Assembly: GCA_022844165.1 (NCBI GenBank)
Contig: JALHMH010000032.1
Coordinates: 28,064 to 54,553 of the forward strand
Length of the DNA stretch: 26,490 bases
Direction: 5' to 3'
Source: Lysobacterales bacterium
Lineage (GTDB): Bacteria; Pseudomonadota; Gammaproteobacteria; Xanthomonadales; SZUA-5
Of the stretch, positions 1,125 through 21,030 are shown in pieces. Below the pieces are notes generated by a model, which saw only the letters and a list, made by a program, of their open reading frames with translations, searched no databases and had not been told where the DNA came from. Both the position numbers and the translations under genes were made by a program. How positions within the stretch are numbered: position 1 is the first letter of the stretch; every line of letters begins with the position of its first letter.

Positions 1125-1868
1125 TCACGGCAGATCCGTAATCGACTTGTGGCCCAAGCGCGGTGGGGTGAGCGACGTGGCGGCCACCGTTTGACCAGGT
1201 CCGAGTGTGCGATCGAACATGGCATCCGATAGTTCGACGTTGAATTTGAGATCGACGATGGCGGCGCGGAAGGAACCGTCGGCGGCGCTGGTCCACGACG
1301 GGTGCAAAATGCCCCCGGCGCGCACCGTCCATGGGCCGCTCAATGTTCCGGCATTGTCGGCATGCGCCCCGAACGCGTAGGGTTCGCCGCGCGAATCGAG
1401 TTTGAACCACGCCAGCCTTTTGTCGTCTTCGACGACTTCCAAACGGCCGTCAACGGTGCGCACGCTCAGCGCGGCATCGCCTTCGGCAAGGCGGTGAATG
1501 GTGCGATACACATGCGCCGCATACCAGCGCTGATCTTCGGCCCAGGTCGCGTCCGAGATCGGTTCGACCTCACCGGTGCGGGTGATCCGCCAATGCGCGT
1601 CGCCGTTCGCCGCACGTGCGATCTTGAAGTCGTCGCCGAAAGTATCGATGCGATAACGCGGCGCGTCGAAATCGAGGTGAATCACTGCACGAACAACGTT
1701 CGGTTCGGCCAATCGATACTGCATCGCCTCATTGCGTGTATTTGTCGCCGCCGCCCACGCCTCGCGCCCGCCCACCGCGGCGAGCATACGTTCGAGATCG
1801 GCGCGGGCATCGGCACGAGCGTTCGAAGACGACAATAAACCGAATGCGATCAACCATGCGAATTTCAT
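1125..1868 (-). CDS. Secreted/periplasmic hypothetical protein
   Basis: 247-aa ORF with a signal peptide (MKFAWLIAFGLLSSSNARA), an 'MLAAVGGREAW' N-terminal helix and strongly GC3-biased codons. Confidence 0.75.
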   Translation of the reverse strand: MKFAWLIAFGLLSSSNARADARADLERMLAAVGGREAWAAATNTRNEAMQYRLAEPNVVRAVIHLDFDAPRYRIDTFGDDFKIARAANGDAHWRITRTGEVEPISDATWAEDQRWYAAHVYRTIHRLAEGDAALSVRTVDGRLEVVEDDKRLAWFKLDSRGEPYAFGAHADNAGTLSGPWTVRAGGILHPSWTSAADGSFRAAIVDLKFNVELSDAMFDRTLGPGQTVAATSLTPPRLGHKSITDLP

Positions 1869-2038
1869 TGGGTCAAGCCTGTAGGTTTGCGGATGGGGCG
1901 CGTTGCCACGATTAGCACCGCTGCGCTCCTCATCGTACCGAGACCAGGCCCTCGCGCTATCAAATTCTTGCTTGCGCGCGGTTTACATTCCGTCCGCGCG
2001 CCACTGCGGCGCCAGGGCGCGCCGAAGCGATGGCCACC

Positions 2039-2719
2039 TCAGGCGCGCTGCGCTCGCCGCACCTGATTGCCATAGCGCCGGTCCAGATACACACCTGCGG
2101 CGATTGCAACGGCGATCGGCGCGAACCACGGGAACAACTGCCAGACCGGGTCGAGCTGCCCAAAGACACCGCGCAGACCAACGCCCAGGAAAGCGACATG
2201 GGTGGCGATACCGTTACCCAACATCGCACCGTAGTGTTCAGTCAACCACCAGTTGCCGGCGCTGGGAATGTTGCGGCGCTTGCGCAGCATGCCGATGCCG
2301 GTGACCACTCCGATCCAACAAAAGCCCATCAGCAGTGGATTGTCGACCGCGACACCGATCGCGAATACGGTGAGTCCGGAGACGATGTTGAACCACGCGG
2401 TCCAGGCATAGCGCGTGTCGAAGAACGCACTGCGATCGCGCTTGCGTTGAATAGCCCGCCAACTGAGCCACACGGCGGTTCCTGTGATGACCACGAGATA
2501 GGCGAAAAACACGCCAAACACGGTGCGACCCTTGGCCAGAAACACCGCCGCAAGCGGCAGCGATGTGGCCAGGATGCCGAGCATCGCGAGCAGATAGATT
2601 TTGCCGACGGCTTTGTGCAGCGGGCTGCCTTTGCGCGCGATAGCGGCGGTCCAGAAGGTGGCCAGCGCGATCGCACCGGCGGCGATGTGCACGTAAACGA
2701 GGAGTTGATAGGCGCTCAT
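2039..2719 (-). CDS. Multi-pass membrane protein, DUF2306-like
   Basis: About 6 TM helices; motifs HIAAG, RKGSPLHKAVGKIY and WWLTEHYGAMLG...ATHVAF. It lies 4 nt downstream of the DUF2141 gene. Confidence 0.8.
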   Translation of the reverse strand: MSAYQLLVYVHIAAGAIALATFWTAAIARKGSPLHKAVGKIYLLAMLGILATSLPLAAVFLAKGRTVFGVFFAYLVVITGTAVWLSWRAIQRKRDRSAFFDTRYAWTAWFNIVSGLTVFAIGVAVDNPLLMGFCWIGVVTGIGMLRKRRNIPSAGNWWLTEHYGAMLGNGIATHVAFLGVGLRGVFGQLDPVWQLFPWFAPIAVAIAAGVYLDRRYGNQVRRAQRA

Positions 2720-2723
2720 GGCA

Positions 2724-3152
2724 TCACTTCAGATCGATTCGGATGGTACTGCCAGCCTCGCTGTGCTCCACCAGCGCATCGGCAAAGTCGGGTGGGCCAA
2801 AGGTGCCGCCACCGCGCGAGAAGCCGTAAGGTTCGCTGGGGATACCGAACATGCCGCGATCCAGTTTGCCGTTGCCGTTTTCATCCACGTACACGGCGAT
2901 CGCGTAGTTACCGGGCGCAAGATCGGCGATCTCGACCGCCTGCATGCGTTGCTCTGAAGCCATTGCACTCACACCGCGCTTGTTGGCGCCGACTGCCTTG
3001 CTCAACCAGTGTTCGGCGCGATCGAAAGCCGAGACGCGGACATCGCTGCCCGGTTTCAGCTTGCCGTGCACTTCAATGGTCATCGGTGCGGCGATTGCGC
3101 CGTGGGCAATCAGCGTTCCGAGCATGAGAGTTACCTTTCTGCGCTTGTCCAT
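2724..3152 (-). CDS. DUF2141 family secreted protein
   Basis: Signature PGNYAIAVYVDENGNGKLDRGMFGIPSEPYGFS. Start ATG at 3152 has an AGGAGG RBS upstream and is followed by a signal peptide. Confidence 0.88.
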   Translation of the reverse strand: MDKRRKVTLMLGTLIAHGAIAAPMTIEVHGKLKPGSDVRVSAFDRAEHWLSKAVGANKRGVSAMASEQRMQAVEIADLAPGNYAIAVYVDENGNGKLDRGMFGIPSEPYGFSRGGGTFGPPDFADALVEHSEAGSTIRIDLK

Positions 3153-3235
3153 CGATGCAGCCTCCTGTGTTTGGCAGTGAGGACAGGATCGCGAATGGCG
3201 CATTGCAGCCCAAGTGCGGATGCGCACCTCCGCTG

Positions 3236-3564: not shown

Positions 3565-3756
3565 ATGCCGGAATTAGAGGACGACCGTTTGTACGTCGTA
3601 GTCGCCAACCACGAGGAGCAGTATTCGATCTGGCTCGCCGATCGCGACATGGCGCCGGGCTGGCTCGAAACCGGCTTTCGCGGTTCGCGGCAAGAGTGCC
3701 TGGACCACATCGCGAAGGTGTGGACAGACATGCGCCCACGCAGCAGCAGAGGATGA
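3565..3756 (+). CDS. mbtH: MbtH-like NRPS accessory protein (63 aa)
   Basis: NHEEQYSIW...PGW...CLDHIAKVWTDMRPRS matches the MbtH signature with its three Trp. ATG at 3565 has GGAG upstream; the ORF-track start at 3325 is overextended. Confidence 0.95.
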   Translation: MPELEDDRLYVVVANHEEQYSIWLADRDMAPGWLETGFRGSRQECLDHIAKVWTDMRPRSSRG

Positions 3757-4622
3757 CTGCCCGAAGGCGGCTGCGCGCGACCGAACTGGGTGCCTGCATT
3801 TCGGCGCGCAAGCACAGCGAAGTGTTTCGCGTCGGCGCAGATCGAGTGCTCAAACTGTTCCGCGGGCACGTGCGTGTCGACCTGGTCGAACGCGAGCTGC
3901 GAACGGCGATGCGCGTGCATGCCGCAGGTATCCCAACGCCGGCCGTCGATGCCGCAATCTTCGAAACCGATGGCGGACGTCACGGTCTGATGTTCGAATA
4001 CATTGAGGCGACGCCGCTCTCGAAGCTGTTTGAGCGCCATCCTCTGCATATCGCCCGATATGCTCGCCTGTTCGCCGACCTTCATCGGCGCGTTCACGAA
4101 TTCGAAGCCGTCGACGGACTACCGATGCAACGCATCGAGCTGCGCGACCGGATACTGCAAAGCGGCCGGATGAGCCTGGGGATTCGCCAACAGTTGCTGG
4201 CGCGACTTGACGCTTGCTCCGAGTCCCAGGCGCCACGTCTGTGCCATGGCAACTTTCACCCGAGCAACGTACTGGTCCATGGCGACCGTGCCTGGGTACT
4301 GAGTCTTGGAAACGCTTGCAATGGCGATCCGATCGCCGATGTCGCCAGAACGTCGACCATCCTGGCCTATGCGGATATCAAGTCCTCCGGCTTGGCTGGT
4401 TGGCTTTCCACACACTATAGCCGCTGGCGAAACCGTCTCTACCTCGCACGGTACCTGGACGGAGAACGAAAATTGCAATTACAATTCGATACGTGGTTGG
4501 TGATTCAGATGGCGCGTCGGCTGGAGGATGGTATCGCCAAGGCGGAAAGCGAAGCACTGGAAAAGAATATCCTGCGACGCCTCAGCGCTGGTTCGCAATC
4601 GTCGCCCTCCGGCGCTGCTTAG
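3753..4622 (+). CDS. APH/choline-kinase-fold phosphotransferase homologue, probably catalytically inactive
   Basis: ATGA overlap with the mbtH stop. VLKLF, AGIPTP, LCHGNFHPSNV and GDPIADVART are recognisable, but HGD is HGN and (I)IDW is VLSL. Confidence 0.85.
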   Translation: MTARRRLRATELGACISARKHSEVFRVGADRVLKLFRGHVRVDLVERELRTAMRVHAAGIPTPAVDAAIFETDGGRHGLMFEYIEATPLSKLFERHPLHIARYARLFADLHRRVHEFEAVDGLPMQRIELRDRILQSGRMSLGIRQQLLARLDACSESQAPRLCHGNFHPSNVLVHGDRAWVLSLGNACNGDPIADVARTSTILAYADIKSSGLAGWLSTHYSRWRNRLYLARYLDGERKLQLQFDTWLVIQMARRLEDGIAKAESEALEKNILRRLSAGSQSSPSGAA

Positions 4623-4680: not shown

Positions 4681-5448
4681 ATGACGGTCACGCAACCACA
4701 GCTCTGGTTCGCCGACGATGCGGCGCCGTTTCTGGGTCTTGAGCCTTTTTACTACGACACCAAAAATTTTCCGTGGGTGAAAAAGGTCGAAGCTGAGTGG
4801 CAGACCATCCGCGATGAACTGCTTGAGCATCTCGCCATCGACCAGGACAGCATGAAGCCGTACGTCAATCGCGAGATGACTTCGCGGCCAAACAGCTGGA
4901 AAACGCTGGGCTTGATGTTCTGGACCATACGTTCGGCAACGAATTGCGCGCTGTTTCCGCGCACCTGGGAAATACTCAAGGACATTCCCAACCTCACGGC
5001 AGTGTCGCTCAACGTGCTCGAACCGCATACGACGATCAAACCGCATGTCGGCAACACCAACGCCATCATCCGTTGCCATCTTGGGCTGGTTGTCCCCGAC
5101 CAGGCACCACGCTGTGCGTTTCGTGTTGGCTCGGAGACGCGTAGCTGGGATGAGGGCAAACTCTTGATGTTCTGCGATGCGCATCAGCACACCGCGTGGA
5201 ACAATACTGACCAAAAGCGCTACATCCTGGTACTCGACATCATGAGACCCGAGTTCGTGCGGCTCAAGAATTCGACCTCGAGTCGCGTCCTGGCATCCAT
5301 CTATCAAGAGGCAGCCTACCAACGGTTTGCGTGGCTAAAGCGGTATTTCGGGGGGCGCCGCGGTCAGGCGTTCACGTTGTCGTTGTTGCGCGCGTTTTAT
5401 CGACTTACGCTCTGGAGCCACCGCTCGTTTTCGGCAGCCAGCGGCTAA
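4681..5448 (+). CDS. Aspartyl/asparaginyl beta-hydroxylase (AspH/LpxO family) Fe(II)/2-oxoglutarate dioxygenase
   Basis: WQTIRDE, IKPHVG...RCHLGL, W.EGK...FCDAHQHTAWN and RYILVLD. ATG at 4681 follows an AGGAG RBS. Confidence 0.9.
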   Translation: MTVTQPQLWFADDAAPFLGLEPFYYDTKNFPWVKKVEAEWQTIRDELLEHLAIDQDSMKPYVNREMTSRPNSWKTLGLMFWTIRSATNCALFPRTWEILKDIPNLTAVSLNVLEPHTTIKPHVGNTNAIIRCHLGLVVPDQAPRCAFRVGSETRSWDEGKLLMFCDAHQHTAWNNTDQKRYILVLDIMRPEFVRLKNSTSSRVLASIYQEAAYQRFAWLKRYFGGRRGQAFTLSLLRAFYRLTLWSHRSFSAASG

Positions 5449-6879: not shown

Positions 6880-9800
6880 TCATCGCTGTTCGGCCGCGAG
6901 GTCGACCGCTTCGCCATCGTTGATTGGCTTTGTTGGGTCATGACCTGCAAGGGCAAGAACTCGGCGACAGACATCGTTGAGCAGCCGTGCGGCGATGCAC
7001 GGGTCAATCAGGCACGCATCGAACTTGATCTCGAGCCGCAACCGTTCGCCCGGCCAGAAAAAGAAGTTCAGCGGAATCGTGCTTTGCGCATGGGTGCGCA
7101 GTCCTGAGACGATCGGGTGAGGGACCTCGGCGTAGTTCTCGACGATCACAGCGCAATCGAAGAGTATCCCGCCGCCATTGGGCGCACTGCCAATGATCTC
7201 CTCGGAACTCACGTGCAGATGCGGTTCTCGCGCAATCTGCGCGGTCAGGACGGCATGCAATGCGGCTCTGGCGTCGACTCCTTCGGCCGCTTCGACCACC
7301 AAAGGCACAAGGTTGATGAACAGACCTGCGGTGTGCGCCAGTTCCGGCAGGTCGACCGGTCGCACCCAAACGAATTGCCCAAAGGCCACGCGCTCGCAAC
7401 CGCGCTCTGCGGCAAGTGCGTGTCCGAATGCCGCTACGTAAAGCGTGCTCGCGGGTACGCCGAGCGAACGAGCGCCAAAAAGTACACGGTTGGTCTCACT
7501 GGTCGAAAGGTCGTGCTCTATCGAACGGATTTCGCCGCCTCGCGAGCCAGGCGTCGTCAGCAGCCAGCTTCTGTCTTTGGACAACTGGGCCAGCTGTGCG
7601 CACCAGAACTCAATGCTGGGTTGGCGCGGTTGTGCCTGTATCCACGCCGCGTAAGAGCGATACGACCGTGCGGGCGCCAGGATGCGATCGGATCCGGTGC
7701 GCTCGGCCTCGTAGAGCTCGAACGCCTCGCCAAGCAGCATGACATCCGACCAGCCATCGAGCAGCGCATGATGGTATGTCCACACGAACTGATGGGAGAC
7801 CGCGTCGAGGCGGATCAAGTGCCACCGAAAGGGTGGTTGCGGGAGCAGCGCGAACTCTTCGCGGCGATCAGCTTGCAGATACTGCTCCAATAGCCCGGTC
7901 CTCTCGCGGGCAGGTCGATCGACCCAGCTCATCTCGCGCCATGTCAGTGTGGCCCTTTTGTTGCAAACCAGCATCGGTCGATCTTCGAGCCTGAAGGAAA
8001 AATAGCTGCGCAGCGCTTCGTGCCGTTCGGCAACGCGAGACCAGGCGCGCTTGAATGCCGCGACGTCGAGGTCGTGCAGCACGCCCTCAACCTGTTCGAT
8101 ACAAAAACCACTCCGCGGATAACGCAGCGACTGCGCTAACATCTCCAGTTGCATTGGCGTCGGGCCGCAAATGAACTCGATGTCGCGCCATGATGGATGC
8201 GCGTGGAACTTCTGCAAATCCGCTCGGCCCAGTCTTGCTGCGGTGATAAACGCTGCACGTTGCGTGGTGTCGTCGCCAGGCGATCGATTTTCCCGGCAAG
8301 CTGCAAGTGCCATGCGAAGGCTCGGCGCCCCCAGCAGTTCTGCGAGTTCCAGTAGAAGTCCCGCTCGGCGCAGTGCCGACAGGAACTTCAGAGCCAGCAC
8401 GGAGTCGCCGCCCACGTCGTAGAAGCTGGCGTCCAGCGATGGCGCGAATCCGAACGCCGAAACCAGCGCCGCTACGCGGGGATCCGATTCGTCTGTCGTT
8501 GTCTGACCGTCGCGATCCGGGACGAACGTTGGCAGCGCGCGCGTATCGATCTTCGCGTTCGCGGTCAGCGGAAACGCATCGAGTCGATAGAAATGCGATG
8601 GCACCATGTAACTCGGCAGCTGCGCCGACAGCGCCTCTACCAACGCAGAAGTCGCCTTATCGCCGCCCCTGCCTACAAATCGGCCGCGCTCGCTCACGTT
8701 GTCGTCGATAAGAAAAGCGACCAGGGCGTCGGCGGCACCAGCGCGGACGCGCTCGACATAAGCACCTCTAATGCCGGGTTGGCGCAGCAGGTGGTGCTCA
8801 ATCTCACCCAGCTCGATGCGAAAGCCGTGCAACTTGACTTGGCGATCGATGCGACCGACGACGACGATAGCGCCGTCTTGATGACGGTATGCGCGATCGC
8901 CCGTCTTGAACATACGGGCACCTGGCGTGGCGCTGAACGGATCAGGCAGAAAGCGCGCCGCCGTCGCCAACGGCGCACCGTAGTACCCGCGTGCGACCAG
9001 CAATCCGCCGATGTAGAGTTCGCCGATCGCATGGTCGCCCAATGGCGCGAGTGCTTCGTCCAGCACATACAGCGCATTGCCAGCGAGCGGATGCCCGACC
9101 GGCACCAGGTCCGTCTCCAGGGCACCGGCATCTGGCAGTTTCCAGCCGCAGTTGGTGATTGTAGTTTCTGTCAGACCATAGGCGTTGACGCAAGGCACCT
9201 GGCGGGCATAGTACTGCTGCCACACGCGCGCCTTCGCTGGCGGGCAGGGTTCGCCGCCGATGATCACCAGCCGCAACGACGGCGGCAAAGGCAGACGCGC
9301 GACCTCAAGATGCTCGAGCCATGCCGACCAAAGCGCGGTCGGCAGATTGAGCACCGTCAAAGATTCGCGCCGGAGACAATCGTCGATCGCGGCCATGCCC
9401 TGCGTTTGCAGGTCAGGCGCCACGATGACGCAAGCGCCGGCACAAAACGTCGGCAACAGCTCTTCGATCGAGACGTCAAAGCTCGGGGCGCAAATATGCA
9501 ATACGCGATCGCTGGCCGCGAGCTGGTATCGCTCGATCGCAGCGCGTAGATGCGCGTCGAGGTTGTCGCGGCCAACAAGCACCGGCTTGCTACTGCCCGT
9601 CGTACCGGACGTCTGGATGATATAGGCGCCGTCAGAACCGTATGCCCATTCGCCATCCGGCGCAATTGCGTCGATATCGGGCAGACCAGACCAGTGCAAC
9701 ACGGGCACAGTTGTCGCAAGCGGCGGCTCGGCGATCGAAACAACGCACTGCAGCCCGGATTGCCTGACGTATCCCAGCAACCGCTGAGCGGGCAGACAAG

Positions 9801-10065
9801 CATTGAGCGGCACATAAACGGCGCCGATTCGAAGGATCGCCAGCATCGCGACCACTGCATTCGATGAACGATTCGCATACACGCCGACGTGACTGCCGGA
9901 AGTCACGCCGGCTGCCCTCAGATCGGCTGCGCGCAACGCTGTTGCCGCATCCAGTTGGCGGTAACTGAGCACTCGGCTGCCATCGAGCAGCGCCGGAGCT
10001 GCAGCGCGCTGATTGGCATGCCAGGTCAGTCGCTCGGAAAGCAGATCCGTTGCCTTAGGCTTCAT
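6880..10065 (-). CDS. Stand-alone NRPS with A-T-C architecture (terminal condensation domain)
   Basis: A domain: LSYRQL, QTSGTTG, SFDVS, NAYGLTE, FKTGD, GRIDRQVKLHGFRIELGEIE, PLTANAKID. T domain: FYDVGGDSV, Ser at 8401-8403. C domain: HHALLDG at 7753-7773. ATG at 10065 is the preferred start; the ORF is open to 10209. Confidence 0.92.
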   Translation of the reverse strand: MKPKATDLLSERLTWHANQRAAAPALLDGSRVLSYRQLDAATALRAADLRAAGVTSGSHVGVYANRSSNAVVAMLAILRIGAVYVPLNACLPAQRLLGYVRQSGLQCVVSIAEPPLATTVPVLHWSGLPDIDAIAPDGEWAYGSDGAYIIQTSGTTGSSKPVLVGRDNLDAHLRAAIERYQLAASDRVLHICAPSFDVSIEELLPTFCAGACVIVAPDLQTQGMAAIDDCLRRESLTVLNLPTALWSAWLEHLEVARLPLPPSLRLVIIGGEPCPPAKARVWQQYYARQVPCVNAYGLTETTITNCGWKLPDAGALETDLVPVGHPLAGNALYVLDEALAPLGDHAIGELYIGGLLVARGYYGAPLATAARFLPDPFSATPGARMFKTGDRAYRHQDGAIVVVGRIDRQVKLHGFRIELGEIEHHLLRQPGIRGAYVERVRAGAADALVAFLIDDNVSERGRFVGRGGDKATSALVEALSAQLPSYMVPSHFYRLDAFPLTANAKIDTRALPTFVPDRDGQTTTDESDPRVAALVSAFGFAPSLDASFYDVGGDSVLALKFLSALRRAGLLLELAELLGAPSLRMALAACRENRSPGDDTTQRAAFITAARLGRADLQKFHAHPSWRDIEFICGPTPMQLEMLAQSLRYPRSGFCIEQVEGVLHDLDVAAFKRAWSRVAERHEALRSYFSFRLEDRPMLVCNKRATLTWREMSWVDRPARERTGLLEQYLQADRREEFALLPQPPFRWHLIRLDAVSHQFVWTYHHALLDGWSDVMLLGEAFELYEAERTGSDRILAPARSYRSYAAWIQAQPRQPSIEFWCAQLAQLSKDRSWLLTTPGSRGGEIRSIEHDLSTSETNRVLFGARSLGVPASTLYVAAFGHALAAERGCERVAFGQFVWVRPVDLPELAHTAGLFINLVPLVVEAAEGVDARAALHAVLTAQIAREPHLHVSSEEIIGSAPNGGGILFDCAVIVENYAEVPHPIVSGLRTHAQSTIPLNFFFWPGERLRLEIKFDACLIDPCIAARLLNDVCRRVLALAGHDPTKPINDGEAVDLAAEQR

Positions 10066-10576
10066 GTGCTTGGCGTTCGCGCTGTGAATGAAGATGTTGA
10101 CGAAAGCATGCCCGGAAAGCGGGGCAGATGTTTGCCCCCATGACGTTGATCGATTGAAACGAGACCTCGCCGGACGCGACACGAACACATCCGTCCGAAA
10201 AGGCGCCACTCGTCATCCAGCGCGTGCCAAAGCATGACGATACCGATCGGCGCCTCATCATCAAGTGTGACCTAAGCGCTCACAAATCGCATCTGTTCCG
10301 AATCATTCCCCGTCCGATTTGCAACAGTACGGCTCAGGGCCGTTGCGTTCTACGACAAAGACGAGCCTCGCAAGGCCCGGTTCAGGCGGCTCAATGTCGT
10401 CGAGCTGTGAACGCACTTGACGCTGCTGAGCACCTCATTAGTGCGCGAAAGGCCCTTTCTGCGCCGAACTGGTGCCACTTGCTGCGCCGGATAGAGCTCG
10501 ATTCTGGCAGAGCCCGGCGGTACCACTTGTTTGCATGGCAGCTGCTGCACGACGTCGATTTGCTGAGGTCCACATT

Positions 10577-10646: not shown

Positions 10647-13600
10647 GTGCAAAAGAGCAATCTGATTGACGTCGTCCGTGCTCGCTTGGCGCAAACACCC
10701 GAAAGAGTCGCGTTCACATTTCTTGATTACCACCCGCGCACGGGGCAGCGAATCTCTACTTCGTGGACGATGTACGAACTGGATGCGCGGGCGCGTTCGG
10801 TCGCTGCGGAACTCGATCGGCTTGGCGCGCGTGGGGAACGCGCCCTCCTGCTGTATCGCGCCGGACTCGATTTTGTCGCCGGATTTCTAGGCTGCCTGTA
10901 TGCCGGCGTCGTGGCGGTACCAGCGTCTGTGCCCAAGCAGGGCTGGGGCGCAGACCGCGTAAGAACGATCGCAGCGCACTCGGGCGCTCGCTTTGCACTG
11001 TCGACCGCAAGCTCGTTGCGCGCCACCAGTCAGTTTCTCACCGGGCGCGACGATCTGCAATGGTTGCTGACCGACGAAATCGCTCCTGCTGCAAGAGATA
11101 CCGCCTTCATACCAGCAGCGATGCAACGCGAAGACCTGGCGCTTTTGCAGTACAGCTCAGGTTCGACCGGCAACCCGAAGGCGGTGATGATCACGCACGA
11201 CAATCTGCTCAGCCAAGCCTTGCTGGTGCGCGATGCTTTTGCGCTGACCGAAGACGACTGTTCCGTGTCCTGGCTTCCCAATTACCACGACATGGGTTTG
11301 ATCACGTCCGTTGTCTTGCCGCTGTTTACCGGGTTCCACTGCGCATTGATGGCACCGGAAGCTTTCGTGATGAAGCCTTCCCGCTGGCTACAGGAACTGT
11401 CGGAGCGTCGGGTACGGTGCTGCGTCGCACCTGACTTCGCGTACGAACTCTGTACGCGCAGGATTAGCGACGATGAGCTGCGCGCGCTTGATCTCACAGC
11501 GATCGAGCACGCTGTCAACGGCGCAGAACCGGTGCGCGCCCGCACGTTGGCTCGGTTCACGGAGCGCTTCGAACCCTGCGGTTTCGATGGCGATGCATTT
11601 AAGCCCGTCTATGGTCTGGCCGAAGCTACGCTGATGGTCTCAGGCCGGAGCAGCAAGCTGGTCATCGGCTCGTTTGAACGCGAACCGCAGGACAGGCGCG
11701 AGCGCTCCGCAACCGATGCCGCCGATTCAACCGCGATCCGGCTTGTGTCCTGCGGCCGGGCATATGGCGACAACGACATTCGCATTGTGGACCCGGAATC
11801 ACGCCGCGAACTGCCAGCGCTTCACACGGGCGAGATCTGGGTCCGTGGCGGGAGCGTTGGTCGCGGCTATTGGGGAGACGTCGGGGCCAGCAACGACAAC
11901 TTCAGCGCGATGCTCGCCGATAGCGACGGCACGCGGTTCATGCGCACCGGCGACCTTGGCTTCTTCCAGGATGGAGAGCTCTTCATTCGCGGACGTTTGA
12001 AGGACCTGATTCTGATTCGCGGCAGCAATCATCATGCGCCAGACATCGAACAGACGGTAGAAGCTTGTCATCCAGCACTAGCCGTTTCGAGCGGCGCGGC
12101 ATTTTCTGTCGATATCGACGACGAAGAACGTTTGATCATCGTGCATGAACTCGAACGCGACGGCCGCGGCATTCCCGAAGCGCAGCTCGCCGAAATCGCT
12201 ACGACGATCCGTCGCTGCGTCACAGAACAACACCAAATCGCTCCCCATGCCGTTCTGTTGCTCGGCCGCGGCTTACCCAAGACCACCAGCGGCAAAGTCC
12301 GCCGCGACGAGTGCCGCAGCCGCTTTCTCGCCGGGCAACTGAAGACCGCCTATGCCTGGACAGCCTCGCAGTCCGATGATGCGCCGACAAAGACCGGCGC
12401 CGCAGAGGCGGGCTCCGAGCGGCAACAGCAGAAGACCACCCAGTGCGAGCAGTGGCTGATCGATCGGATCGCGCGAGCAAGCGGCACCCGCAGCGACCGG
12501 ATTGGCATTTTGACGCCCGTCTCTGAATTCGATCTCAGCCCCGCCGCGATGATCGAACTGGTCCGCGACTTCGAACGTGAGTTCGGCGTGTTGGTAACGA
12601 TGTCTGTGTTTCTTGAGCATGAAAACATCCAACAGCTGGCCAACCACCTTGGCAAGGCCATCGCAGCGGCCGATGAGGCCGAACCCGGCACCGGCGGTCG
12701 GCTGACAGCGGAGGCGTTGGCAAGCTCCATGGGCAGCGAAGCGCGCTCGTCGGCCGCAGATGCGATCGCCATTGTCGGCATGGCCTGCCGCCTCCCTGCG
12801 GCGAATGGGACGAAGGCCTTTTGGGACAACCTATGCCGTGGCGTCGACGCGGTAGGAGAGGTCCCGCCGGAGCGTTGGGACAACGAAGCACTGTATGACG
12901 AAAACCCGCTCGCACAGGGGAAGATGAATACGCGCCGCGGCGGATTCCTCACCGACGTGGAACTCTTCGATCGGAAGTTCTTCGGCATTCCGGTGCGCGA
13001 GGCAGTACGCATGGATCCGGCGCATCGGCTGCTATTGGAACTGAGCTGGGAAACCCTGGAAGATGCCGGTATCCCCGCTGGTAGCGTTAGCGGACAGCGC
13101 GTTGGCGTGTACATCGGTATTTCCGGAAGCGACTACGCGCAGCTGCAATTCGGCGACGAAATGCTGGCCGATGCCTATGCTGGCGTCGGTTGTGCGCTCA
13201 CGAACTCCGCGAGCCGCATCTCGCACTTCCTCAACCTGCGCGGACCGGCGCTGGCCGTCGATACGGCTTGTTCGTCCTCCCTCAGCGCGCTGCACCTGGC
13301 GGCCAGCGCCGTCCGCTCCGGCGAATGCCAGCTGGCGCTCGCGGGCGGCGTGAACATTATCTTATCGCCTACCGTGACGATGTCGCTCAGTAAGGCCGGC
13401 ATGATGGCACCTGACGGTCGCTGCAAGACCTTCGACAAGCGCGCCGATGGATATGTGCGATCCGAAGGCGCCGGCCTGGTGCTGCTCAAGCCACTCGCCA
13501 GAGCGATCGCCGACGGCGACCGGATCTACGCTGTCATTCGTGGTTCGGCCAGCAATCAGGACGGAAAGAGCAGCGGTATTTCTGCTCCCAACGGCGAAGC

Positions 13601-16600
13601 GCAACAGCGTGTGGTGTTGGCCGCCTGCGAGAACGCGGGCATTTTGCCCGGCAACCTCGACTACGTAGAAGCTCATGGTACCGGTACCGCATTAGGCGAT
13701 CCGATCGAGGTGAACGCCCTGGGAGAAGTGCTCAAGATCGGTGCTCAGCCAGGGAAGACCTATGCGATCGGTTCGGTAAAAACCAACATTGGGCATACCG
13801 AGTCGGCCGCCGGCATCGCCAGCATTATCAAGGCCAGCCTGATCTTGCATCACCGTCAGTTGCCACCCAGTCTGAACTTCGAAGATCCCAACCCGTTGAT
13901 CCCGTTCGAGCGCTACAACATTAGCGTGCAGAAGACCTTGCAACCTCTGATCGGTTTCGGCGGGCCTGCATTGGTCGGTGTCAATAGCTTCGGTATCGGC
14001 GGCACCAACGTGCATTTCGTGCTGGAGGAGCCCGGCGCGATGGCGACTTCCCGCCCGATGCAGATGAACGAGGAGCGACCGTACGTGCTCACGATCAGCG
14101 CTCGCAGCGAGAATTCGTTGAAGCTCAATACGGCCGCCCTGCTCGACTACTTGTCGCAAGAGGGCACGCCGTCGCTTGGCGATATCGAGTACACGTTGGG
14201 GGCGCGTCGCTCGCATCTCGAACATCGTCTTGCGGTGATCGGCAGCGACCGCGCCGAACTGATAACGGCACTGAAAGCTCAAGTCGAAATCAATTATCAC
14301 GCCGACATCCTTCAGGCACACGCACAACCGGGAACCGATGGCCGGCCGAAGCTCGCATTCGTGTTTTCCGGCCAGGGGCCGCAGTGGTGGGCAATGGGCC
14401 GAAAGCTGTTCTCCTGCGAGCCGGTTTTCCGCGACTGCATCGAGCAGTGCGATGGCTTCCTCAAGCCGATGACCGGCTGGTCGCTCATCGAACTCCTGCA
14501 TGCCGACGAAGCGCACTCGACACTCCGCGAAACGGCCTATGCGCAGCCCGCGCTGTTCGCGCTGCATTGCGGCCTCGCGGCTTTGCTGCGTTCGCTTGGG
14601 ATCGAACCCGATGCAGTCGTGGGCCATAGCCTTGGCGAAATCGCCGCTGCGCACATCGCTGGCTGCCTCTCGCTCGAAGATGGCTGCCGACTGGTTGCGG
14701 TCCGTGCCGAACTGATGCAGAAGGCCACCGGTGAAGGACTCATGGCCAGCATCGAAATGTCGCGCGAGGATGTTGAGCGCGAGCTCGCCGGCGTCGGCGA
14801 CGCACTGACCATCGCCGCCACCAATACCCACGGCACTACGGTTGTCTCGGGTGAGCGACAGGCGCTTGAGGCATTGCTGGCGAGCCTCAAGCAGCGCGGG
14901 GTTGTTGCTGTCCAGCTACCGGTCAACTACGCGTTCCATAGCGCGCAGATGGAACCGATCAAGCGAGAACTCGTGCTTCGACTTGCCGGCCTTTCAGCCA
15001 AACCGGCGCGCATTCCATTCATGTCTACGGTAACGGCCGATTGGGCCGGTAGCGACCACTTGCTGGGACCCGAATACTGGGGCGCTAATGTGCGCCAGGA
15101 AGTGCGTTTCGGCGATGCGATCACCGCGCTCGGTCGCCAGGGTGTGCGTGTCTACGTCGAGATCGGGCCGACGCCCGTATTGTTCGGTGCGATCGTCCGC
15201 GGACTCAAACTCGCAGGTATCGGTGGCGATGCGGTTACTACGCTGGAACGGGACGCCGACGACCTGCGCATGTTGGCGCGATGCATCGGCATGCTGCAGA
15301 CGCTCCGCTGTTCTCCAGACTGGACCGCCTGGCGGCCCGCCGCCCGCTTCGTGAGCGGTTTGCCACATTATCGATGGGATCGCCAACGATACTGGATGGA
15401 CGCCGCACACCACGAGGCGCGCCGACGCTTGAGCGCACATCCGCTTGTTTCGCTGCGCATGCCTGTCGCTCAACCCACCTGGCAGTCCCATCTGGACATC
15501 AATGTCGATCCGTATCTCACCGCACTGCGCGTAAGAGGCCGGCCGCGCATTGCCTGCGGGGTGCATGTGGAACTGGCCCTTGAGGCACTGTTTGGTGGCA
15601 GCGACCAGACCAGTCTTCGCGAGCTGTTCGAACTTCAGTTCGACGAAGTTCCAGACGCACTCGATCCCACGCAATTGCCGACGTTGCAAACCACGATTCA
15701 TGGCACCAGGGCCGGTGCGTCCTCCGTTACCATTTCGGCGCAGACGGACGACAGCCAGGGTAAAGCGGCGGCCTGGTTTCCGGTGATGACCTGCCGCACT
15801 GCCGCGGCCTCTTCTACCAGTACGCCCAGGCAACTCGACATCGTATCGCTGCGCGCTCGCTTCACCAATCAGCTAAGTGCAACCGAGGTGTATCGAAGAC
15901 TCGCCGAAGTCGGTGCCGAATATGCGCCGCCGCGCCAGGTCGTACAAGAAATCTGGCGCGACGAGGAAGCGGTGTTGATCGGACTTCGCACTGCGCAGAT
16001 GTTCAAAGCCGATATCGGCAAGTATCAACTACATCCGCTGGTGTTCGAAGCGATCGAACAGGCAGCACGCCTGACGTCCGGCAGCGTGGCGGCGCAACAC
16101 GAGCTGGCACACGTCGCACGCGTGCGGCTGATCGGCGACTGCGCGCGCGCAACGCTTTTATATGCGCGTCTGCGGGTCGTCGGAGCGCCCTCCGATCCCG
16201 CACGCGAGGGCGAATCGACACACACCGACGTCTGGGTGCTGGCAGACGACGGCAGCGTGCTCGCCATTGTCGAGGGAATCCGGTTCCGCGCGCAGCGATC
16301 CGAAGAGGATTTCAGTATTCCGACGGATATCGACCACTGGCGCTACCGCGTGCATTGGCAAGAGCGGGCACTCGAAGCCACCGACCTCGCCGCGACCCCG
16401 GCAAACGGAGCCTGGTTGATCGTCGCCGACCGACGAGGTGTTGGCGAGCAGCTTTGTCGCTGGCTTCGCCAACACGGGCAGGATTACGTCATCGTCGAAC
16501 CGCGCAGTGCGTTTTCGATCCTCGGCACCGATCACTATGAGATTGACGCAAATTCCACGGCCGACCGCGTTCGCGTTTTGCGCGAGGCCTTCGCAGAACG

Positions 16601-19202
16601 TGATCGGTCGTGCCTGGGCGTCGTCCACCTGGGCGCTCTGGACGCGGCCCGTGGCGGCCTCACCCCCGACATCATTGCCGCCGATCAAAATGCAGGCGCG
16701 CTGGGGGCGATGTTTATGGTTCAGGCGGTTGCGCAGAGCGACTTCCTGCGCGCCCCGAGGCTGTGGCTGGTCACTTGCGGTGTGCACGCCGTTTCTGGCG
16801 ATGCCGGCCCCCTGTCGCTATCCCAAGCTCAGCTTTGGGGATACGCCAAGGCCATCGTGATCGAACACGCCGAATTGCGCGTAGCGCGTGTCGATCTTAG
16901 TGCCGCCGTTGAAGCTGAAATTGCGGCACTCGGAATGGAGATCCTGGCCGACGGAAGTGCCGACCAAATCGCGCTCAGGGTCGACCGCCGCTACATCGCC
17001 GAGCTGAAATACGAGCGCAAGCCGACCGGGGAGGAGGAACCGTCGATCGACGCAGACCAGGCCGCAGCGGGCGTTCCGTATCGGCTCTCGTTTGAGCGGC
17101 AGAACGGCACGATCAGGCGACACAAAGTGCGCCGCAGCAGGCCAGGTTCGGATGAGGTCGAATTGCGCCTGGTTACGGCGCAGGTCGCCGTGTGCGGCAG
17201 CGACCTACAGGTTCGAGCATGCAGCGGAGTTCTGCTTCGGAATGGACCTGGCGGCGCGATGGAGCCCGGCCAACAGCTGGTCGCGATCGTTCGCGCGCCG
17301 CTCGCTTCGCATCTTCGCGTCCGGGCGAGCGCTACGGCGGCAATACCGACCGGGCTGGATGCGCCATCGCTGGTATCGGTTATCCAACCACTATTTGCGG
17401 CATGGTGCGCTTTGCGTGAGATCGCCGGCGTCGGCAAAGGCGATCGTGTGCTGATTCGCGGCGAATCCGCCGACACAACTCTGGCTGCGATTCAAATAGC
17501 TCGCCTGCTGGGAGCGCGCGTGTTTGTCTCAACACCGGCAGCCTTGCACCCGTCGCTCGCCGGCCAGCGCGTCGAACTCCTGTTCGACGAGACCGAGCCA
17601 TCGTCGTACATTTCGGTACGCGCCATGAGCAATAACATCGGCGTCGATGTGCTGGTCAATCTCGGTGGCCCGCTCGACACTGCGCGTTGCTTGTTGGCAT
17701 TGCGCAACTTCGGTCGCTGTATCGACCTGACGGCGGATGGCGACTACCGTGCCGCGGTCGCGATGATGCCCAACAACGCAACGTTGCAGCGCCTCGATAT
17801 CGAAGGCTTCCTGAGCGACCGCCCAGACGAAGCGAGCCGACTGCTAAGCGAGGTCGTTGAGCATGTCCGGTCAGGTGCTATCCGGGTACCACCGGCCAGC
17901 GGTGTCGTACTCGATGAGCTCGCGCCGGCGTTGGCGGAACCCATCGGGGCGTCGCTGCTGGTTCAGATGCCGCAGCCGATCGAAGCCGGCAGCGATCAGC
18001 TGCGCTCTGCTTATCGCAGCGATGCCAGCTACCTGATTACCGGCGGCCTGGGCGGCTTAGGCCTGAAGATTGCCGAACGCATGATCGACCAGGGCGCTCG
18101 GTCCCTGGTTTTGTGCGGACGCAGCCCGCCCAATATTGCAGCACTGGACGTACTCGCAGAGTTCGAAGCGAAGGGCGCGCGATGCACGACCATTGCGGTC
18201 GATGTTGCCGACAGTGCGCAAGTTTCTGCGATGCTCGATCGCATCCGGCACGAGCTGCCGCCACTCGCCGGTATCGTCCATGCCGCCGGCATTCTCGACA
18301 ACGGACTCATCACGCAGATGGATGAGCGTCAGTTCCGTTCGGTCATGCCGGCCAAAGTGGATGGCGCATGGAACTTGCACATCGCAAGCACGTCCGATGC
18401 GCTCGACTTCTTCGTGATGTTCTCTTCGCTCGCTTCGATCATCGGCTCGCCGGGGCAATCCAACTACGCGGCGGCCAACGCCTTTCTCGAAGCGCTCGCT
18501 GAACAGCGCCGACTTGACGGCCGTGTCGGTCTGGCGATCGGGTGGGGCCCGTGGGCTGACGTTGGTATGGCCGCCGACGTCCACAACCTGCAGCGTCTGG
18601 AACAGCATGGCATGGGCATGGTGAGCGTAGAAAAGGGCTTGGATTTACTCGAAGAGTTGATTCTGGAGGGCAGCGCAGGCGTTGTGGGCGCGCTGCCGAT
18701 GAACTGGACAGTCTGGGGCCGAACGCGAGCGCAAGCCGCGCGCACGGCGTACTTCGCCGGATTGGTCCCGGCCTCGGCCGTCGTGGTCAGTAACGTCGGC
18801 AAGATTACCGCCGCGAGTCTGGCTGGCAAGGAGGCCGAGACCCAGGTCGAGATGCTGCAAGCGGCGGTCCTGCGCGCGTTATGCCAATCGATGATGCTCG
18901 ACGCCGATAGCGTCGAGCTGAACGTGCCACTGACTGCGATCGGCCTGGACTCGATCGTCGCCCTCGAACTCAAGGACCGGATCGAGTCTGCGATTGATGT
19001 CACTGTGCGCACCAGCGCGCTCATCGGCGGAAAGAGCATTCGCGCACTCGCGATTCACTTCCGGGACGAGCTTACGGGCGTCGCTGCGAGCGCAAATTCC
19101 GAAAGCCAGAATCGCGACGCAGAGCTGTTGGACGGACTGGAGGAACTGACTCAGGACGAGATCGAAAGCATGCTGATGGACCTGGAAACCGAAGCAAGGT
19201 AA
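10647..19202 (+). CDS. FAAL-initiated type I PKS: FAAL-ACP(degenerate)-KS-AT-DH(inactive)-ER(inactive)-KR-ACP
   Basis: FAAL: LQYSSGSTGNPK, SWLPNYHDMGL, YGLAEATL plus insertion, RTGDLG, PKTTSGK. KS: DTACSS, HGTGT, NIGH. AT: GHSLG, YAFHS. KR: GGLGGLG, HAAGILDN, GQSNYAAAN. Terminal ACP: GLDS with Ser at 18951-18953, then an acidic C-terminal tail. No TE. Confidence 0.95.
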   Translation: MQKSNLIDVVRARLAQTPERVAFTFLDYHPRTGQRISTSWTMYELDARARSVAAELDRLGARGERALLLYRAGLDFVAGFLGCLYAGVVAVPASVPKQGWGADRVRTIAAHSGARFALSTASSLRATSQFLTGRDDLQWLLTDEIAPAARDTAFIPAAMQREDLALLQYSSGSTGNPKAVMITHDNLLSQALLVRDAFALTEDDCSVSWLPNYHDMGLITSVVLPLFTGFHCALMAPEAFVMKPSRWLQELSERRVRCCVAPDFAYELCTRRISDDELRALDLTAIEHAVNGAEPVRARTLARFTERFEPCGFDGDAFKPVYGLAEATLMVSGRSSKLVIGSFEREPQDRRERSATDAADSTAIRLVSCGRAYGDNDIRIVDPESRRELPALHTGEIWVRGGSVGRGYWGDVGASNDNFSAMLADSDGTRFMRTGDLGFFQDGELFIRGRLKDLILIRGSNHHAPDIEQTVEACHPALAVSSGAAFSVDIDDEERLIIVHELERDGRGIPEAQLAEIATTIRRCVTEQHQIAPHAVLLLGRGLPKTTSGKVRRDECRSRFLAGQLKTAYAWTASQSDDAPTKTGAAEAGSERQQQKTTQCEQWLIDRIARASGTRSDRIGILTPVSEFDLSPAAMIELVRDFEREFGVLVTMSVFLEHENIQQLANHLGKAIAAADEAEPGTGGRLTAEALASSMGSEARSSAADAIAIVGMACRLPAANGTKAFWDNLCRGVDAVGEVPPERWDNEALYDENPLAQGKMNTRRGGFLTDVELFDRKFFGIPVREAVRMDPAHRLLLELSWETLEDAGIPAGSVSGQRVGVYIGISGSDYAQLQFGDEMLADAYAGVGCALTNSASRISHFLNLRGPALAVDTACSSSLSALHLAASAVRSGECQLALAGGVNIILSPTVTMSLSKAGMMAPDGRCKTFDKRADGYVRSEGAGLVLLKPLARAIADGDRIYAVIRGSASNQDGKSSGISAPNGEAQQRVVLAACENAGILPGNLDYVEAHGTGTALGDPIEVNALGEVLKIGAQPGKTYAIGSVKTNIGHTESAAGIASIIKASLILHHRQLPPSLNFEDPNPLIPFERYNISVQKTLQPLIGFGGPALVGVNSFGIGGTNVHFVLEEPGAMATSRPMQMNEERPYVLTISARSENSLKLNTAALLDYLSQEGTPSLGDIEYTLGARRSHLEHRLAVIGSDRAELITALKAQVEINYHADILQAHAQPGTDGRPKLAFVFSGQGPQWWAMGRKLFSCEPVFRDCIEQCDGFLKPMTGWSLIELLHADEAHSTLRETAYAQPALFALHCGLAALLRSLGIEPDAVVGHSLGEIAAAHIAGCLSLEDGCRLVAVRAELMQKATGEGLMASIEMSREDVERELAGVGDALTIAATNTHGTTVVSGERQALEALLASLKQRGVVAVQLPVNYAFHSAQMEPIKRELVLRLAGLSAKPARIPFMSTVTADWAGSDHLLGPEYWGANVRQEVRFGDAITALGRQGVRVYVEIGPTPVLFGAIVRGLKLAGIGGDAVTTLERDADDLRMLARCIGMLQTLRCSPDWTAWRPAARFVSGLPHYRWDRQRYWMDAAHHEARRRLSAHPLVSLRMPVAQPTWQSHLDINVDPYLTALRVRGRPRIACGVHVELALEALFGGSDQTSLRELFELQFDEVPDALDPTQLPTLQTTIHGTRAGASSVTISAQTDDSQGKAAAWFPVMTCRTAAASSTSTPRQLDIVSLRARFTNQLSATEVYRRLAEVGAEYAPPRQVVQEIWRDEEAVLIGLRTAQMFKADIGKYQLHPLVFEAIEQAARLTSGSVAAQHELAHVARVRLIGDCARATLLYARLRVVGAPSDPAREGESTHTDVWVLADDGSVLAIVEGIRFRAQRSEEDFSIPTDIDHWRYRVHWQERALEATDLAATPANGAWLIVADRRGVGEQLCRWLRQHGQDYVIVEPRSAFSILGTDHYEIDANSTADRVRVLREAFAERDRSCLGVVHLGALDAARGGLTPDIIAADQNAGALGAMFMVQAVAQSDFLRAPRLWLVTCGVHAVSGDAGPLSLSQAQLWGYAKAIVIEHAELRVARVDLSAAVEAEIAALGMEILADGSADQIALRVDRRYIAELKYERKPTGEEEPSIDADQAAAGVPYRLSFERQNGTIRRHKVRRSRPGSDEVELRLVTAQVAVCGSDLQVRACSGVLLRNGPGGAMEPGQQLVAIVRAPLASHLRVRASATAAIPTGLDAPSLVSVIQPLFAAWCALREIAGVGKGDRVLIRGESADTTLAAIQIARLLGARVFVSTPAALHPSLAGQRVELLFDETEPSSYISVRAMSNNIGVDVLVNLGGPLDTARCLLALRNFGRCIDLTADGDYRAAVAMMPNNATLQRLDIEGFLSDRPDEASRLLSEVVEHVRSGAIRVPPASGVVLDELAPALAEPIGASLLVQMPQPIEAGSDQLRSAYRSDASYLITGGLGGLGLKIAERMIDQGARSLVLCGRSPPNIAALDVLAEFEAKGARCTTIAVDVADSAQVSAMLDRIRHELPPLAGIVHAAGILDNGLITQMDERQFRSVMPAKVDGAWNLHIASTSDALDFFVMFSSLASIIGSPGQSNYAAANAFLEALAEQRRLDGRVGLAIGWGPWADVGMAADVHNLQRLEQHGMGMVSVEKGLDLLEELILEGSAGVVGALPMNWTVWGRTRAQAARTAYFAGLVPASAVVVSNVGKITAASLAGKEAETQVEMLQAAVLRALCQSMMLDADSVELNVPLTAIGLDSIVALELKDRIESAIDVTVRTSALIGGKSIRALAIHFRDELTGVAASANSESQNRDAELLDGLEELTQDEIESMLMDLETEAR

Positions 19203-20954: not shown

Positions 20955-21030
20955 CCAGACCACTGCCATGCATGTGCTCGACGCGAAGCTTCGCTCCCCA
21001 GAAATCCCGGCCCGCAAGGAACATACTCGC

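Follow-up and report, generated by a model that had tools for sequence, protein, structure and literature searches.

A conserved APH-fold pseudokinase in a predicted FAAL-PKS/NRPS gene cluster of a Lysobacterales bacterium and its possible pairing with an intact kinase

Results

The DNA analysed here, referred to as the window, is a stretch of 26,490 nucleotides from a Lysobacterales bacterium (GenBank assembly GCA_022844165.1, contig JALHMH010000032.1, positions 28,064 to 54,553 of the forward strand). Judged by its predicted protein domains, the window is one end of a hybrid fatty-acyl-AMP ligase-polyketide synthase (FAAL-PKS)/nonribosomal peptide synthetase (NRPS) gene cluster of the lipopeptide type. 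The open reading frame (ORF) at 3753-4622, which begins within the stop codon region of an mbtH-like gene, encodes P0001, a protein of the aminoglycoside phosphotransferase (APH) fold. P0001 lacks both Asp residues that are required of an active phosphotransferase of the APH/choline-kinase type; the beta3 Lys, the alphaC Glu and the loop residue Asn172 are present. Like the kinases that confer self-resistance to peptide antibiotics, P0001 is encoded within an NRPS/PKS cluster.

In APH and choline kinases, the roles of the HGD and metal-site motifs as catalytic base and metal ligand are established. The catalytic loop of P0001 reads HGNFHPSN. His165-Gly166-Asn167 is encoded by CAT GGC AAC, placing an Asn codon (AAC, 4251-4253) at the catalytic Asp position, and Asn172, the second Asn of the loop, is encoded by AAC at 4266-4268. 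At the metal site, WVLSLG contains Ser184 (AGT, 4302-4304). The catalytic-loop Asp is found in 22 of 24 aligned homologues (of 71 from the first protein search), as HGD in 21 rows and HYD in one, and all 22 also have (I/V/L)DW at the metal site; HGN together with LS is found only in P0001 and P0002. Because the aligned columns hold Asp in 22 of the 24 rows, the residues lost from P0001 correspond to the catalytic base and the metal ligand. The match to Pfam PF01636 (APH), which covers residues 22-202, has an E-value of 1.2e-18 and scores 68.3 bits against a cut-off of 23.2. The two replaced motifs, the retained VLK lysine (Lys34) and GDPxADVART (as GDPIADVART), and the full-length frame of 289 residues that overlaps mbtH by ATGA (3753-3756) had all been described in the original prediction, made from the letters of the window, and each reads as described.

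At the position after the metal-site residue, which is at least 90% conserved as Trp in the family, P0001 has Leu185 (4305-4307) and P0002 has Val; the other rows of the dead clade described below retain Trp. The metal motif therefore appears to be further eroded in the sub-lineage of P0001 and P0002.

A structure model, one of the checks proposed in the original prediction, has a confident bilobal kinase-like fold (AlphaFold2, predicted local distance difference test score [pLDDT] 95.0, predicted template modelling score 0.91). The top Foldseek matches to the model are the choline/ethanolamine kinase family protein 3dxq and APH(3') structures (E ~2e-10, probability 1.00), and the capreomycin kinase Cph001 is also matched (E 1.5e-8). 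Look-alikes in the ESM Atlas belong to generic APH clusters only. With 60.1 bits against a cut-off of 228.2, P0001 is a relative, not a member, of NCBIfam TIGR02172. A profile of the dead clade matches solved structures with weak E-values, among them APH(3'), hygromycin kinase, viomycin kinase (5e-4) and corramycin phosphotransferase (1.8e-3). No longer or fused forms were found at E 1e-10 or better among 6121 candidates, which is weak evidence.

Proteins are called dead here if both the catalytic-loop Asp and the metal-site Asp are replaced, and intact if both are present. Exhaustive searching of 1.84 billion representatives turned up 3456 relatives (E <=0.001). Among 223 collected proteins, 11 lack both Asp (P0001, P0002, P0072, P0073, P0075, P0076, P0077, P0079, P0082, P0083 and P0221, with P0075 and P0221 in the same 90% cluster) and six lack only one (P0029, P0078, P0093, P0109, P0140 and P0206); the remainder with a readable loop keep both. 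Three double-loss proteins were added later: P0224, from contig C185 of comparison genome G005 (HGN/TGW), and P0225 (HGN/TGW) and P0232 (HGG/TGW), of which the latter two were recognised from their motifs and are in neither tree. A quick maximum-likelihood tree with 88 rows unites nine HGN rows in a single clade, with a support of 91 in the Shimodaira-Hasegawa-like approximate likelihood-ratio test (SH-aLRT). This clade is nested in a 20-row group (SH-aLRT 98) that contains Asp-bearing proteins, including a paralogue encoded by G000, the source genome of the window. A 36-row tree to which proteins of the comparison genomes G005 and G010 were added places ten HGN rows and P0083 (HGA/LHW) in one group (SH-aLRT 93). 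The end-branch lengths of the dead proteins are within the range of their Asp-bearing neighbours.

The dead-clade alignment comprises 11 rows that are 28-70% identical to P0001. The Cys-His-Gly of the catalytic loop, Glu48, and Gly191 and Asp196 of the GDPIADVART region are present in all 11, Asn167 in ten and Asn172 in eight; position 34 is Lys in nine rows and Arg in two. The metal-site residue is Ser in seven rows, Gly in three and His in one. Of the two changes that the original prediction proposed to look for in homologues, Asp-to-Asn is present in 10/11 rows and Asp-to-Ser in 7/11. The near fixation of Asn167 makes a specific contact more likely than a void or drift. Taken from these alignments and trees, the group of P0001 appears small and old, with both catalytic Asp lost, most simply once. 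By the same evidence, its proteins have been maintained since that loss as full-length, constrained proteins.

The double Asp loss is neither a sequencing error nor strain-specific decay, because the substitutions recur in independent assemblies and in divergent homologues. The metagenome contig L008, which is 97.5% identical in nucleotide sequence over 1510 aligned bases, contains the same mbtH, HGNFHPSN and WVLSLG, and the same ATGA overlap (the MbtH ORF ends at 704 and the pseudokinase match starts at 701). Logan contigs of runs X1, X3 and X4, from two studies, carry AGT at 4302-4304 unchanged, and AAC at 4251-4253 is covered by the Logan contig of run X1. P0002, which comes from another metagenome and is 69% identical to P0001, has HGN and LSV. 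Both strain-specific decay and read errors had been named in the original prediction as alternatives; the losses are common to 11 tree-clustered proteins down to 28% identity and, by motif, to P0225 and P0232. L008 was the sole relative among 154 pattern matches in the metagenome-contig scan, and a genome-contig scan with the two closest sequences returned 41 pattern matches and no relatives.

G000 encodes a second family member, with L-C-H-G-D and V-D-W, at the end of contig C3. The gene order at this end (L032 9811-16889, minus strand) is NRPS thiolation-thioesterase (T-TE), three hydroxylases, P450, methyltransferase and kinase. The three tandem hydroxylases, of the Asp/Asn beta-hydroxylase family, are 42-51% identical to each other. 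The window contig, C32, stops where a new adenylation (A) domain begins, and the reverse complement of the C3 end opens with the last A-domain motifs, followed by T-TE. In the 59-contig assembly, NRPS pieces lie at only two contig ends, those of C32 and C3. No nucleotide overlap between the two ends was found, and at least one A-domain core is missing. Since the A-domain breaks match and no other contig ends bear NRPS genes, the C3 end is probably the far end of the window cluster.

In G005, which belongs to the same family but another genus, contig C199 carries an NRPS T-TE, an HGD/IDW kinase, a methyltransferase, a hydroxylase, a P450 and an NRPS on the minus strand that runs off the end. 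Contig C185 carries the N-terminus of the same NRPS (minus strand), the HGN/TGW dead copy and a FAAL-PKS. The two contigs overlap by 75 nucleotides with one mismatch, placing the dead and intact copies approximately 7 kb apart in a homologous cluster. Between G000 and G005, identity is 53% for the hydroxylase, 52% for the P450, 45% for the FAAL-PKS (2357 aligned columns), 34% for the reverse NRPS, 33% for the intact kinases and 28% for the dead copies. On these identities, the two clusters are homologous but old. The coupling to mbtH emphasised in the original prediction is found in the window and in L008, but it is not a feature of the clade, as the G005 dead copy has no mbtH immediately before it. 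A homologue with both Asp in the same cluster, which had been regarded as a sign of decay, does exist in G005 and probably in G000, but as a second, separate paralogue. The reading therefore shifts from a lone decayed resistance kinase to a kinase/pseudokinase pair. In a third genome, G010, an intact kinase (L031:3038-3991) follows an NRPS on a contig of 4 kb; no dead copy was found in this genome, which is only 80% complete. The Asp-bearing paralogues of G000, G005 and G010 have Gln at the alphaC-Glu column, where all 11 dead-clade rows have Glu. A complex prediction for P0001 with the intact G000 paralogue scored 0.00 in both runs, had no controls, and is evidence neither way.

The features of the window and the two intact paralogues with a readable cluster context are listed in Table 1.

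Table 1. Coordinates of the pseudokinase gene and its motifs, the neighbouring window genes and the intact paralogues of G000 and G005
Feature	Coordinates	Strand	Remarks
mbtH-like gene, 63 aa from the Met of MPELEDD	3565-3756	+	PF03621, E 2.5e-18; start chosen by eye
APH-fold pseudokinase gene (P0001, 289 aa)	3753-4622	+	ATG 3753-3755, TAG 4620-4622; PF01636
ATGA start/stop overlap of P0001 with mbtH	3753-3756	+	mbtH stop TGA 3754-3756
Lys34 codon AAA, beta3 Lys of V32-L33-K34	3852-3854	+	retained
Glu48 codon GAG, alphaC Glu	3894-3896	+	retained
Catalytic loop H165-G-N167-F-H-P-S-N172	4245-4268	+	HGNFHPSN; Asn in catalytic Asp position
Ser184 codon AGT, replacing the Mg-binding Asp of (I/V)DW	4302-4304	+	W181-V-L-S184-L-G
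GDPIADVART, G191 to T200	4323-4352	+	retained
Fe/2-oxoglutarate hydroxylase, Asp/Asn beta-hydroxylase family	4681-5448	+	PF05118, E 6e-48
Cytochrome P450	5536-6834	+	PF00067, E 7.1e-22
NRPS module A-T-C (C, condensation), divergent	6880-10209	-	Pfam AMP-binding, PP-binding, Condensation
Loading and PKS module (FAAL-PKS): acyl-AMP ligase, carrier, KS, AT, DH, KR, carrier	10647-19202	+	Pfam
ABC transporter, membrane and ATPase domains	19269-20954	+	PF00664, PF00005
Free-standing thioesterase	20860-21765	+	PF00975, E 1.8e-45; start uncertain, listed ORF overlaps the ABC gene
NRPS C-A-T-C, off the contig end at the start of a further A domain	21639-26489	+	Pfam
Intact G000 kinase	L032:9814-10674 (L032 = G000:C3:232000-248889)	-	HGD/VDW
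Intact G005 kinase	L030:1540-2514 (contig C199)		HGD/IDW

The best NCBIfam rows for the window hydroxylase are OlsC (145.5 bits, cut-off 450) and LpxO (83.9 bits), both below cut-off. As these are lipid acyl 2-hydroxylases, the target of the cluster hydroxylases may be the acyl chain or some residue other than Asp or Asn. The P450 scores 356 bits against NCBIfam SolI, the solanimycin P450, where the cut-off is 850. Identity with the solanimycin (sol) cluster was considered and rejected, given the score below cut-off and the absence of a kinase or phosphotransferase from the sol cluster as described (PMC9765074, PMC10204066). The same descriptions of the sol cluster include neither MbtH nor Asp-hydroxylase genes (PMC9765074, PMC10204066). 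Because these three kinds of gene are absent there, the window P450 appears to be a related P450 of another pathway. Upstream of the cluster, the region 2039-3227 (minus strand) encodes a DUF2306 membrane protein (a weak match, below cut-off) and a DUF2141 protein with a signal-like N-terminus. Approximately 340 bases of non-coding DNA separate these genes from mbtH, and this gap probably marks the cluster edge.

Relatives of P0001 are rare. At a threshold of E 1e-30 they occurred in 3 of 25 genomes from the family, at E 1e-35 in 3 of 399 from the order and at E 1e-25 in 2 of a sample of 400 from the class. The gene was not found in the one same-genus genome searched, which is 99% complete. 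A wider scan of genome contigs gave 42 pattern matches, of which 15 were relatives; these came exclusively from Ruminococcus, Lachnospiraceae or Clostridiales and had 24-45% best-segment identity. They (L009-L023) form a separate APH-family group of approximately 250 residues, from metagenome-assembled genomes and isolates, which also has an L-C-H-G-N-F loop. Within the wider family, this group seems to have lost the catalytic Asp independently. The member at L016:9803-10561 has I-N-W, and so has lost both Asp; the member at L009:3271-4041 keeps V-D-W. At the two loci examined, the neighbours of these genes are of the housekeeping kind and do not form biosynthetic clusters. A member with H-N-D and I-D-W is encoded by ORF 1432-2292 (minus strand) of L025 (G164:C9:24999-28745), from a different family within the class. 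A Gly-rich repeat protein precedes it and a fatty-acyl-AMP-ligase-type gene lies immediately downstream, a context that again hints at a tie between this APH subfamily and acyl-activating biosynthetic genes.

Discussion

The gene context and conserved motifs, together with analogy to characterised kinases, suggest that P0001 may well be a conserved pseudokinase that is paired with the kinase of its cluster and binds or processes a hydroxylated or phosphorylated intermediate; the chance that this is correct seems about even. The confidence is likewise evenly poised that the dead-clade proteins in general are accessories of hydroxylase-rich FAAL-PKS/NRPS clusters, accompanied by a separate intact paralogue, as in both readable lineages. 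The intact paralogue would serve as the pathway phosphotransferase, acting on a hydroxyl of the product or an intermediate, as is the case for ComG, Cph and Vph. The dead copy would no longer transfer phosphate, being barred from the classical mechanism because the base and the metal ligand are both gone. Its retained cleft (the Lys34-Glu48 pair, the C-H-G-N-F loop and Asn172) could accommodate the same ligand, hydroxylated or phosphorylated, possibly together with a nucleotide but lacking the usual Mg site, and the dead copy would then hold, shield or further process the ligand. A role in binding or processing is proposed because P0001 keeps the parts that position a phosphate-bearing ligand and shape the cleft. 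In protein kinases, the catalytic and DFG Asp are reported to serve catalysis, not ATP binding (PMC4718504).

A more specific possibility is that P0001 is a repurposed kinase-fold enzyme, which would catalyse phosphate elimination or ring closure on a beta-hydroxy residue or hydroxy-acyl group, installed by the cluster hydroxylases and phosphorylated by the paralogue, in the PKS/NRPS lipopeptide pathway. This seems rather unlikely. If true, elimination or cyclisation by P0001 would be the assembly-line counterpart of the LanK/LanX logic, or of in-site elimination of the LanM type. To our knowledge, such logic has so far been known from ribosomal peptides only.

Sequestration, scaffolding and nucleotide sensing were the roles put forward in the original prediction, and each is a guess. 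Immunity by sequestration, its leading idea, is unlikely but plausible. A former self-resistance kinase would bind the finished antibiotic tightly, protecting the producer and leaving the product unmodified. Viomycin kinase (5e-4) and corramycin phosphotransferase (1.8e-3), both of which inactivate a peptide antibiotic, are among the solved relatives retrieved by profile, ComG is reported as a self-resistance factor within a hybrid PKS/NRPS cluster (PMC10996006), and the motifs of the former substrate cleft are conserved in the dead clade. However, an ABC exporter is already encoded in the cluster, as probably is an intact kinase, one-to-one binding is costly for an exported product, and binding of a peptide alone needs no strict retention of Asn167, Glu48 and Lys34. 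The retention of Lys34, Glu48 and Asn172 would be expected of a nucleotide-using enzyme, whether an atypical, Mg-independent or very weak phosphotransferase or the catalyst of another nucleotide-dependent reaction that dispenses with the classical Asp pair; the near-fixed Asn167 (10/11) also points to a specific role rather than drift. Several supposed pseudokinases have proved weakly or unusually active, among them CASK, which works without cations, and HER3, in which Asn replaces the catalytic Asp (PMC4718504). Nonetheless, such an enzyme is improbable. Not only are the base and metal ligand both gone, but the metal-site residue varies among Ser, Gly and His, no compensating conserved acidic residue is evident in the clade alignments, and the GRTAE sequence that forms the Gly-rich loop in the wider family has likewise been lost.

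Gene order would suit a scaffold or chaperone of the assembly line that attaches to MbtH, an adenylation domain or a carrier protein and brings in trans-acting hydroxylases. The P0001 gene is coupled to mbtH by ATGA and lies just before the hydroxylase and P450 genes, the G005 dead copy lies between an NRPS gene and a FAAL-carrier-PKS gene, and acylated acyl carrier protein is reported to stabilise WaaP, which likewise has a kinase fold (PMC6147952). With the mbtH coupling not seen in G005, and with no fused forms among the longer proteins (weak evidence), a scaffold is distinctly improbable. A decaying gene, or an assembly or sequencing artefact, would have no function. The rarity of the gene (3 of 399 genomes of the order), the failure to find it in the one same-genus genome searched and the additional loss of the conserved Trp185 in the P0001 lineage are what decay might leave. 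Against this stand a full-length ORF with a confident predicted fold, the same substitutions in independent assemblies and in tree-clustered homologues from 69% down to 28% identity, and the conservation of the motifs around the lost residues. Decay is hardly credible, and it is the only one of the four rivals that is rejected by the evidence.

Several points weigh against the pairing of P0001 with a cluster kinase. The gene surroundings can be read in only two independent lineages, one being G000 together with L008, its 97% twin, and the other G005, and the join of C32 and C3 in G000 is deduced, without sequence overlap. Both trees are quick searches with SH-aLRT support only, and the G005 dead copy has a very long branch (2.44), leaving its placement in the clade unsure. 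The original prediction had proposed a dN/dS (ratio of non-synonymous to synonymous substitution rates) below 1 as a check; the value between P0001 and L008 is indeed 0.34-0.44, but it derives from 14 changed codons (7 synonymous and 7 non-synonymous), too few to carry weight. The activity of the intact paralogues is presumed, and they have Gln at the alphaC-Glu column. Across the window, the C3 end and G005, the scanned ORFs encode only NRPS, PKS, hydroxylase, P450, methyltransferase, ABC, thioesterase and MbtH proteins, with no phospho-lyase, LanD-like or phosphatase gene among them; small ORFs were not searched for precursor peptides. Finally, RosX, a kinase-like lanthipeptide protein discussed below, has also lost the ATP-binding Lys and Arg, whereas the P0001 clade keeps Lys34 and Glu48.

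Bacterial pseudokinases related to choline and aminoglycoside kinases have been predicted before, in spore-coat kinases (PMC2860764), and kinase-fold non-kinases are reported as proven in lanthipeptides (PMC12291118). A literature search, with subscription journals and supplements outside its scope, found no APH-fold pseudokinase and no kinase/pseudokinase pair in an NRPS/PKS cluster. When a biosynthetic cluster contains a paralogue that has lost catalysis, annotation usually gives it the name of the live enzyme. The proteins described here carry the source labels 'aminoglycoside phosphotransferase', 'RdoA' and 'thiamine kinase', and such genes are therefore misread as resistance or tailoring kinases. 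The dead clade appears to be a kinase-fold lineage that gave up phosphotransfer yet stayed conserved, tied to PKS/NRPS clusters that probably keep a live copy. In lanthipeptides, a pattern of dead and live kinases recently turned out to conceal a new class of enzyme. Should the pairing prove to be more widespread, it would offer a search handle for hydroxylase-rich lipopeptide clusters in uncultured bacteria, and a simple bacterial system for studying the role of a pseudokinase beside its active sister.

Eukaryotic protein-kinase signalling provides a precedent in JAK, in which the pseudokinase JH2 works with its active paralogue JH1. HER3 has the same Asp-to-Asn change at the catalytic base as P0001, is reported to bind ATP at about 1 uM and acts through its active paralogues EGFR and HER2 (PMC4718504). 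Unlike P0001, which has lost the metal Asp as well and would function in small-molecule biosynthesis, HER3 keeps the DFG Asp and belongs to protein-kinase signalling; a physical pair in the cluster of P0001 is putative. Pseudokinases have also been predicted among the bacterial spore kinases (BSK family, CotS/YtaA relatives), which are choline/aminoglycoside-kinase-like (PMC2860764). Like P0001, they have lost the catalytic Asp (repeatedly), keep fold-stabilising residues and are read as non-catalytic (PMC2860764). However, they are Firmicutes spore-coat proteins of another subfamily, encoded outside biosynthetic clusters, and they are likewise predictions.

Class V lanthipeptide clusters are described as carrying two APH-family proteins, for example CaoK and CaoX (PMC9486802). 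RosX/LanX proteins, whose kinase-like fold is devoid of catalytic and Mg residues, are reported to be cyclases that are found beside the active kinase LanK (PMC12291118). RosX, which lacks the ATP residues as well, was long annotated as a kinase homologue (PMC12291118). P0001 resembles LanX, RosX and TvaE, from class V lanthipeptide and thioamitide pathways, in its APH/kinase-like fold, its annotation as a kinase and its lack of the catalytic Asp and Mg ligands (PMC12291118). The clusters are probably also alike, in that a peptide natural-product cluster contains an active-looking APH-family kinase, the link being firmer in G005, through the contig overlap, than in G000, where it is deduced. 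LanX has a non-kinase tailoring job (PMC12291118, PMC9486802). LanX proteins belong to clusters for ribosomally synthesised and post-translationally modified peptides (with LanD and LanY), whereas P0001 comes from a PKS/NRPS cluster in whose scanned ORFs genes of this kind were not seen. The analogy is partial, because the P0001 clade keeps the Lys and Glu, the cluster is non-ribosomal and no lyase or decarboxylase gene was seen.

Self-resistance kinases of peptide antibiotics also resemble P0001. ComG, an APH-family kinase of the hybrid PKS/NRPS cluster for corramycin, is reported to inactivate the peptide product of its own pathway (PMC10996006). Both ComG and the capreomycin and viomycin kinases Cph and Vph have the APH fold and are encoded in NRPS or PKS/NRPS clusters, as is P0001. 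These enzymes keep the catalytic and metal Asp and phosphorylate the product (PMC10996006), whereas P0001 has Asn and Ser at these positions, and the P0001 clade is only distantly related to them, as its profile E-values indicate. By analogy, ComG, Cph and Vph are likely the model for the intact paralogue of the cluster.

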